A stretch of 64,000 bases of DNA, taken from the NCBI GenBank assembly GCA_964016885.1, contig OZ024753.1:31558001-31622000 (forward strand), written 5' to 3'. Origin of the DNA: Eledone cirrhosa. Its lineage: Eukaryota. Below, in pieces: positions 39,577-40,112 of the stretch. The notes under the pieces were generated by a model. That model had not been told where the DNA came from. It made no database searches and worked only from the letters and a program-made list of their open reading frames with translations. The translations under genes were made by a program, and so were the position numbers. Position 1 is the first letter of the stretch; every line of letters starts with the position of its first letter.

Positions 39577-40112
39577 GTAGATAAATCTACCAAGAGTTTA
39601 CGGTAGTGTCCAATCCGTATGAAGAACTCAATGTATTCCGGATATCATGGAAAGAAGAGATGTAATGAAAATCCACTTTCGGTGAAAGATAAACGGTATA
39701 CAGAGTCAAGATAAAATATTAAACAAATAATGAATAAACAATTCCTTATATTAAACAAAAAAAGTTCATTATTTAACGATCGTTTCTAGGGTATATATGT
39801 GTTATAATTGGTATGCATATTCAACAGATCTATGTACAAAATTATACAAAATTATACAAATTATCAAGATTAAATATACATACCTAACACATATATACGC
39901 CGTCTTCAGAAATAATGAAGACGGCGTATATATGTGTTAGGTATGTATATTTAATCTTGATAATTTGTATAATTTTGTATAATTTTGTACATAGATCTGT
40001 TGAATATGCATACCAATTATAACACATATATACCCTAGAAACGATCGTTAAGTAATGAACTTTTTTTGTTTAATATAAGGAATTGTTTATTCATTATTTG
40101 TTTAATATTTTA
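39577..40112 (-). mobile_element. Fold-back solo pLTR: HHR + tail, with ~200-bp palindromic arms
   Basis: Arms 39712-39907 and 39916-40112 are near-perfect; tail 39577-39700 matches 3576-3697. Confidence 0.88.
39765..39919 (-). ncRNA. Type I hammerhead ribozyme with ~115-nt stem II domain
   Basis: UUCAUUAUUU CUGAAGA cgg..uauauauguguua [..] uaacacauauaua cccua GAAA CGAUCG UU/ AAAUAAUGAA (10-bp stem I). Confidence 0.85.

Follow-up and report, generated by a model that had tools for sequence, protein, structure and literature searches.

What is the short hammerhead palindrome at 39.6 kb, how is it related to the truncated reverse transcriptase (RT) gene at 1.6-3.7 kb, and how could such a structure be produced? 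The window, the whole 64,000-nucleotide stretch of Eledone cirrhosa DNA analysed here, contains both insertions, and many further copies lie elsewhere in the genome. We find that a young and highly abundant Penelope-like retrotransposon (PLE) left the 39.6-kb fold-back as a short, dead-end insertion. From the arrangement of the genomic copies, we consider it probable (roughly 0.6) that the fold-back is the product of an active Hydra-clade PLE, made by dual priming at two sites, named P1 and P2, with run-off at a fixed 5' end of the element RNA.

Alignment resolves the 39.6-kb element into two head-to-head arms that form a 0.55-kb fold-back (Table 1). In the unit numbering used here, position 1 is the C of CTTCATTATTTCTGAAGA. 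One arm reaches the fixed end P1 (unit 344-347, window 39577-39574), and its 40 best genome matches are 99-100% identical. The inverted arm reaches the second fixed end, P2 (unit 210, window 39711), and lacks both the start of the ribozyme core and the last 134 nt, named the tail. The fold-back of the original prediction is real and its match bounds stand, with the end of the inverted arm corrected to 40113 and the tail to 39710-39577. It had been taken for the solo pseudo-LTR (pLTR) of the family. A solo LTR or solo pLTR is a single repeat left by recombination, and what is found here is two head-to-head arms with different fixed ends. Nor does the element have the form of a non-LTR retrozyme, with at least two tandem units and a whole hammerhead in each: one ribozyme is whole and its inverted partner is incomplete.

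Table 1 Features in the window, with position, strand and basis of assignment.
Feature	Position	Strand	Basis or remark
AT-rich, microsatellite-like 3' UTR of the coding insertion	1..1613	-	extends beyond the left window edge to the hammerhead
5'-truncated RT + GIY-YIG ORF, subfamily B	1614..3574	-	open to the stop; 610/660 aligned residues identical to the 813-aa subfamily-A protein
P1 arm of the coding insertion: tail only, about unit 212/217-347, subfamily B	3565..3700	+	inverted relative to the ORF
P1 arm of the fold-back: pLTR unit positions 1-344 (hammerhead + spacer + tail), subfamily A	39577..39920	-	344-base identity to L031:1494-1837
Tail: 134 nt between fixed ends P2 and P1, unit positions 211-344	39577..39710	-	end mapping in the fetched sample
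Predicted type I hammerhead, 155 nt	39765..39919	-	motif scan, fold z -9.0; constrained fold
Head-to-head junction at the putative RNA 5' end	39910..39920	.	A of TTCATT, unit position 5 = window 39916
P2 arm of the fold-back: inverted copy of unit positions 13-210	39916..40113	+	197/198 identical; adjoins (AT)n
Tandem array, about 3.8 units of 466 bp, a small type I hammerhead in each; retrozyme-like	17826..19595	-	Rfam HH9 36-39 bits, below gathering score
Hydra-like element remnant	42984..44340	-	GIY-YIG region 40% identical to P0002
Hydra-like element remnant	29290..30013	+	same cysteine motifs as the PLE family
Other inverted repeats in (AT)n	56919..57414; 13358..13646; 20096..22637; 23613..23717		unrelated to the PLE family by BLAST
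Three copies of another repeat, one with an internal inversion	4792..5417; 40724..41356; 51946..52529		92-96% identical

The tail ties the fold-back to the coding copy. As predicted, 114 of the 122 bases at 3576-3697 match 39577-39700 read in reverse complement, and a masked self-BLAST pairs 3565-3688 with 39709-39586 (92%, E 3e-45). Both window tails have a common end, GATTTATCTAC, followed by ATA(TA)n. The common tail does place the two copies in one family, but they belong to different subfamilies, B at 3.6 kb and A at 39.6 kb: the 3.6-kb tail is identical to a subfamily-B copy at 130 of 133 bases, as against 123 of 133 for the 39.6-kb arm. The subfamily-B unit is 5400 bp long, and its ORF is 93% identical in DNA to that of subfamily A.

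The pLTR of the family carries a hammerhead ribozyme predicted from motif and fold. Its stem I has 10 bp (39919-39910 with 39774-39765), its core is CUGAAGA at 39909-39903 (DNA CTGAAGA at 39909), stem II is about 44 bp long and stem III is a 2-bp palindrome. Cleavage is predicted after GUU at unit position 146, between 39775 and 39774. The constrained hammerhead fold has an energy of -47.4 kcal/mol, as against -48.6 kcal/mol for the free fold. Among the recurrent changes at paired positions in 25 variants, six kept the pair in the sense strand only, four in both strands and none in the antisense strand only, and four broke it; the 3' strand of stem I is unchanged in 25 of 25. Since the variants are close kin, this covariation gives modest support for the hammerhead. 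The ribozyme at 39.6 kb was not found among the 150 listed of 425 Rfam matches, probably because of its long stem II, and a miRNA hairpin identity was rejected, the sub-threshold Rfam matches among those listed being fold-back noise. Older subfamilies (L187-L198) have GUA in place of GUU at the cut site. In a distant sister family (L209, L142, L143, L154), which would be useful for covariation, the first 22 bases, the core of the ribozyme and the P1 end are conserved and stem II is long but different.

The identification of hammerhead and tail as the pLTR of a coding PLE family is borne out by full-length copies. All four direct 6.6-kb pairs examined (L031-L034) carry hammerhead and tail before the ORF and again 3.7 kb after it, and the coding copy at 1.6-3.7 kb terminates in this hammerhead too. 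A full unit reads ribozyme, tail, leader, open ORF, a 3.7-kb AT-rich and microsatellite-like 3' UTR, ribozyme and tail; in subfamily A it measures 6613 bp, with the ATG at 500 and an ORF of 813 aa in L031 that is open in 4 of 4 full units. A 40-base piece from the ribozyme end (positions 140-179) occurs exactly 6666 times in the 3.0-Gb genome. The 3' UTR (L031:4900-8100) is largely (TA)n/(TG)n-like and carried with the element; annotation would mask it as simple repeat, and younger copies insert inside it (L089). Known biology would lead one to expect a pLTR hammerhead to be part of a PLE. The proposed tie between small hammerhead elements and PLE machinery holds for the 39.6-kb element and fails for the 466-bp array at 17.8-19.6 kb, which has no similarity to the PLE family by BLAST within the window.

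The 813-aa protein combines RT (YRDD at 346) and GIY-YIG nuclease (IVY..YIG at 692-709) in a single ORF, as EN+ PLEs do, and pLTRs in partial tandem with an inverted 5'-truncated copy are a further PLE hallmark found here. PLEs optionally carry a tail of 30-40 bp at one end; here the one-sided tail is 134 nt. Neighbours of the protein in the ESM Atlas at 0.96-0.99 include GIY-YIG/RVT_1 in part of their members, and a Pfam search and a PDB sequence search of the protein gave no significant match. By its motifs, the family is an unusually long Hydra-like variant. The protein has RWR at 37, DKT at 115, a CxCx5C linker at 673, CxxC at 771 and CxH at 799; GxK[FY] and CX2-5CxxC were looked for in it and are absent, both as in the Hydra clade. 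Nearly all listed insertion ends adjoin (TA)n, the target of this clade. The generally short length of the clade (<3 kb), a descriptive and not a diagnostic mark, is exceeded by the units of both subfamilies. Membership in Naiad/Chlamys was ruled out because the nuclease is C-terminal.

The truncated RT/GIY-YIG frame of the coding copy has 655 codons (3581-1614, - strand), and the 3.6-kb tail (+) is inverted against it, as originally described, with the junction at about 3570 and a 3-base overlap. The inverted piece had been read as a partial copy of the same pLTR. It proves to be the tail alone, and exactly this tail is absent from the other end of the copy: the copy's own hammerhead (G000:C13:31556513-31556717), 1.3-1.5 kb left of the window, stops at P2 (position 210) without a tail, and the missing tail is the inverted piece.

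Ends were mapped in the surroundings of the first 100 listed of the 6666 anchor matches (contig C1, 0.4-70.2 Mb) and grouped by hand; the anchor, which is the 40-base piece above, misses insertions with neither arm reaching it. Arms in this sample end at P1 or at P2. The sample contains 44 head-to-head insertions, of which 41 combine a P1 end with a P2 end and none has two P1 ends. A contiguous P2/P2 insertion (L178) is an exception to the one-of-each rule, a P1 arm joined to an arm ending near 174 (L110) is an exception to the P1/P2 ends, and the remaining insertion has an unassignable end. Where both ends lie at P1 or P2, 41 of 42 insertions are mixed (p 1e-11 under a 50:50 choice). A single arm is seen in 24 further insertions (14 P1, 10 P2); for some of these only 1-4 kb upstream is covered, and one adjoins an N gap. 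Two candidates were dropped, namely the ends C1:54091416 and 54102217 as a P2/P1 pair, with no element sequence between them, and an apparent P1/P1 pair (L171), whose second P1 belongs to an older insertion (83-86% identical). In an older subfamily (L200 at G000:C1:122932600-122934200, L201, L199 and L204), about 80% identical, a SINE-like insert of 200 bp, single or in two copies, lies where the ribozyme starts, and the start sequence is present twice; ARAGORN found no tRNA in the insert. One member of this subfamily, L199, is another P1/P2 pair.

Palindromes are a known artefact of long reads and of amplification, and a sequencing or assembly fold-back would give two arms of this kind. The unequal fixed ends, the one substitution between the arms, the tail-only arms and the recurrence of these boundaries in short contigs from other samples and organisms make this explanation hardly credible. 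Loose ends in the contigs of other runs, among the 24 listed of 126 rows and mostly in single contigs, fall at position 5 in two other organisms, at P1 in three runs and at P2 in one, and one of the two other-organism contigs also shows a (TA)n end at P1. Contig depths were not taken as copy numbers.

The main rival for the symmetric copies is self-priming, in which a single cDNA started at P1 folds back on itself and the second end at P2 is set by a nuclease or by strand transfer; self-priming or endonuclease-mediated resolution is proposed in passages of PMC3846280 and PMC8557442. The two arms of one insertion come from a common source, differing by 0.62 bases as against 5.75 between loci (29 pairs), as dual priming would have it; such near-identity fits self-copying or later gene conversion as well. 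A 4-5-base hairpin is available at the window's junction type, and P2 is AT-rich like the target. Fold-back of one cDNA, however, cannot make an insertion in which a tail-only P1 arm is joined to a longer P2 arm, and this arrangement is found in at least 7 of the 41 mixed insertions (L120, L121, L126, L162, L168, L169 and L170), where the P2 arm has upstream sequence absent from the P1 arm, and likewise in the window's coding copy at 3.6 kb. Two further observations against self-priming are perfect loop-less palindromes at 12 of the first 50 junctions (by eye) and an extra G on both arms of the fold-backs L202 and L203. Taken together, these features render self-priming rather unlikely as the general explanation. 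A difficulty for dual priming, besides the one-armed insertions, is that the P1 arm usually extends past P2. Of 13 long pairs it is the longer arm in 3 and the P2 arm in 10 (by eye), so that one shared RNA would need strand displacement.

The arms meet at a narrow site just before the ribozyme core, where 922 junctions were counted, as against 6 at a control site 35 nt upstream searched with the same pattern design. In the first 50 junctions, positions 5-8 are where most arms stop. Some junction types are seen repeatedly (7, 7, 6 and 5 of the 50), the type of the 39.6-kb element accounting for 7. Arms leaving the element just before the A at position 5 (A5) number 1730, and 3733 arms read through position 2, so the stop at A5 is not obligatory; these pattern counts include the distant sister family with the same first 22 bases (3 of 30 loci of the A5-end pattern). 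The base before A5 is mostly A or T (71 of the first 100). It is G in 428 of 1730, about a quarter, and a C not due to read-through in at most 134, whereas one base further in G and C stand at 29:21 (Fisher p 0.007 against the A5 position). Context was listed for 293 G ends; inspection by eye of the first 100 showed no point mutant of the read-through sequence, 12 ends that adjoin (AT)n directly and 13 for which position 12 in the opposite arm could have supplied the base. The sequence TTCA+1TT fits the initiator consensus. No AG precedes A5, which is therefore not a splice acceptor. On balance, a capped Pol II transcript start is the most likely identity of A5; the prevalence of A or T before it counts against this, as does the possibility of untemplated C addition without a cap.

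Alternatively, two primers could be used and the stop at positions 5-8 could be imposed by RNA structure, a bound protein or a processing cut. The stop does lie inside ribozyme stem I, and the abundant read-through and the G share of only about a quarter would both suit such a barrier. The G excess over C is specific to position 5, and this, the initiator fit and the missing AG speak against a structural or processing stop. In L204, moreover, the G-marked end lies at the duplicated start, 204 nt before the ribozyme, and is followed by the SINE-like insert, not by a ribozyme stem (n=1). We therefore regard a stop of this kind as unlikely and prefer the capped start. An apparent truncation hot spot at the ribozyme cut (557 matches) was discarded: 10 of 12 loci examined belong to the older GUA subfamily and 2 are true junctions, which scales up to roughly 90 stops at the cut, a rough figure from 12 loci, as against 1730 at A5. 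Two older-subfamily copies (L190, L196) start with G at position 2, not 5, which might reflect a shifted 5' end in older subfamilies. The corresponding position-2 start pattern gave T in 99 of 100, dominated by a templated variant, and a second pattern (1375 matches) gave G in 12 of 100, confounded by a subfamily with a templated A.

The 0.55-kb fold-back might also be a non-autonomous element of its own, retrozyme- or SINE-like, with one master copied in trans, and the existence of about 900 similar copies with recurring junction types is what such a master would leave. Against a master stand the heterogeneity of the junctions, the arm lengths, which form a continuum up to 12 kb, and the fold-back rather than tandem form of the copies. 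The window's junction type is common to subfamilies A and B and the distant sister family (L207-L210) and thus recurs independently. A single master is very unlikely on these grounds.

The genomic copies show directly which family this is, that insertions end at the fixed sites P1 and P2, that an inverted insertion has one end of either kind, and that junctions cluster at positions 5-8. Many copies suggest that each insertion consists of two DNA copies begun at two fixed RNA sites and joined head to head. These arrangements lead us to infer that two primers are used, what the 5' end is and how the copies are joined. In the preferred model of dual priming with run-off, the GIY-YIG nuclease would cut both strands of a (TA)n target, and each target 3' end would prime reverse transcription in the element RNA, one strand using P1 and its partner using P2, which lies 134 nt upstream. 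A5, 7 nt before the ribozyme core, would be the first base of this RNA. When priming takes place at P1 and P2 of the first pLTR, both cDNAs (about 340 and 205 nt) would run off the RNA end and be end-joined head to head into the 0.55-kb fold-back, and priming at the downstream pLTR of a read-through transcript would give the long arms. For the 1.6-3.7-kb copy, the P2 cDNA would have run 5.1 kb and the P1 cDNA would comprise only the tail. The ribozyme would be mostly uncut in the RNA used as template.

A generalization to all PLEs is more tentative, and we would put it at a little under even odds: PLE integration may be an obligate asymmetric dual priming, in which one complex primes both target strands, each at its own fixed site on the RNA. 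A single class of products would then include inverted pLTRs, one-sided tails and LINE-1-like inversions, and use of the sites near the 5' end of the element's own mRNA would give strong-stop-like cDNAs running off a capped end. If so, much of what the element makes would be waste in the form of hammerhead fold-backs, and full-length progeny would depend on read-through into a second pLTR.

PLEs are the closest retrotransposon kin of telomerase, and papers invoke self-priming or nuclease resolution for the origin of their inverted repeats and one-sided tails. The present family is represented by thousands of nearly identical copies, its ORFs are intact and its tail is four times as long as usual, so that in every insertion both sites of priming and both stops are on record. 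Sharp predictions follow from it (each event uses P1 once and P2 once, the RNA begins at a single base, and a G is added), and it offers a candidate enzyme and RNA for integration tests. The model would also explain a class of about 900 hammerhead palindromes that may be mistaken for miRNA hairpins or separate non-coding elements. Hammerheads in pLTRs, inverted repeats and one-sided tails are already known; the one-of-each pairing, the fixed G-marked run-off end and this PLE family were not found in a literature search that mainly covered papers available without subscription.

Among known systems, the Hydra-clade PLEs, including Hydra-1_Obim, are described in Craig et al. 2021 (PMC8557442), and the portions of that paper compared here agree with the present family in the C-terminal GIY-YIG nuclease, RW[K/R], DKT, the CxCx5C linker, CxxC and CxH, the (TA)n target, and a type I hammerhead with a short palindromic stem III and a GUU/GUA cut triplet. 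The N-terminal 400 aa are visibly colinear with Hydra-1_Obim in its supplement (by eye); Hydra-1_Obim is a different family with a different hammerhead. The present family differs from the clade as described there in its unit of 5.4-6.6 kb (mostly under 3 kb in the clade), its 2.9-3.7-kb microsatellite-like 3' UTR, its hammerhead of 155 nt with a stem II of about 44 bp (80-100 nt in the clade) and an N-rich insert in the ORF.

Penelope elements of Drosophila virilis and Adineta vaga, as far as excerpts of PMC2377424 and PMC3846280 describe them, share the partial tandems, the inverted 5' copy, the tail on one inverted pLTR, palindromic junctions, an internal initiator promoter in the pLTR and N-rich ORF inserts. 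The palindromes were there taken as self-priming, and, unlike in Penelope, no intron donor GT[AG]AG is found in the first 520 nt of the unit here. Non-LTR retrozymes (bioRxiv 10.64898/2026.07.22.740005) are likewise non-coding hammerhead repeats from a PLE pLTR; the present fold-back differs in being head-to-head and single, with a whole ribozyme in one arm only.

A biochemical comparison is offered by the anole Poseidon PAc in vitro (Frangieh et al. 2024, PMC11167929), whose main text reports extension of both target strands, two internal start sites bounding a tail, and uncut RNA as the main template, all in favour of the preferred model, and no start-site difference between strands, which counts against it. 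Its tail is 30-40 nt, as against 134 nt here, and its sites lie in the ORF, whereas here they lie in the 5' leader before the ATG; the main text mentions neither a pairing of two sites per insertion nor a fixed 5' run-off end. In LINE-1 twin priming, finally, inversions likewise come from two primers on one target, and full-length 5' ends bear an untemplated G, which is an accepted sign of cap copying in LINE-1 and SVA (sections of PMC4859970). The present family differs from LINE-1 in that its priming sites would be fixed and internal, with no poly(A), and its arms usually overlap and duplicate sequence.
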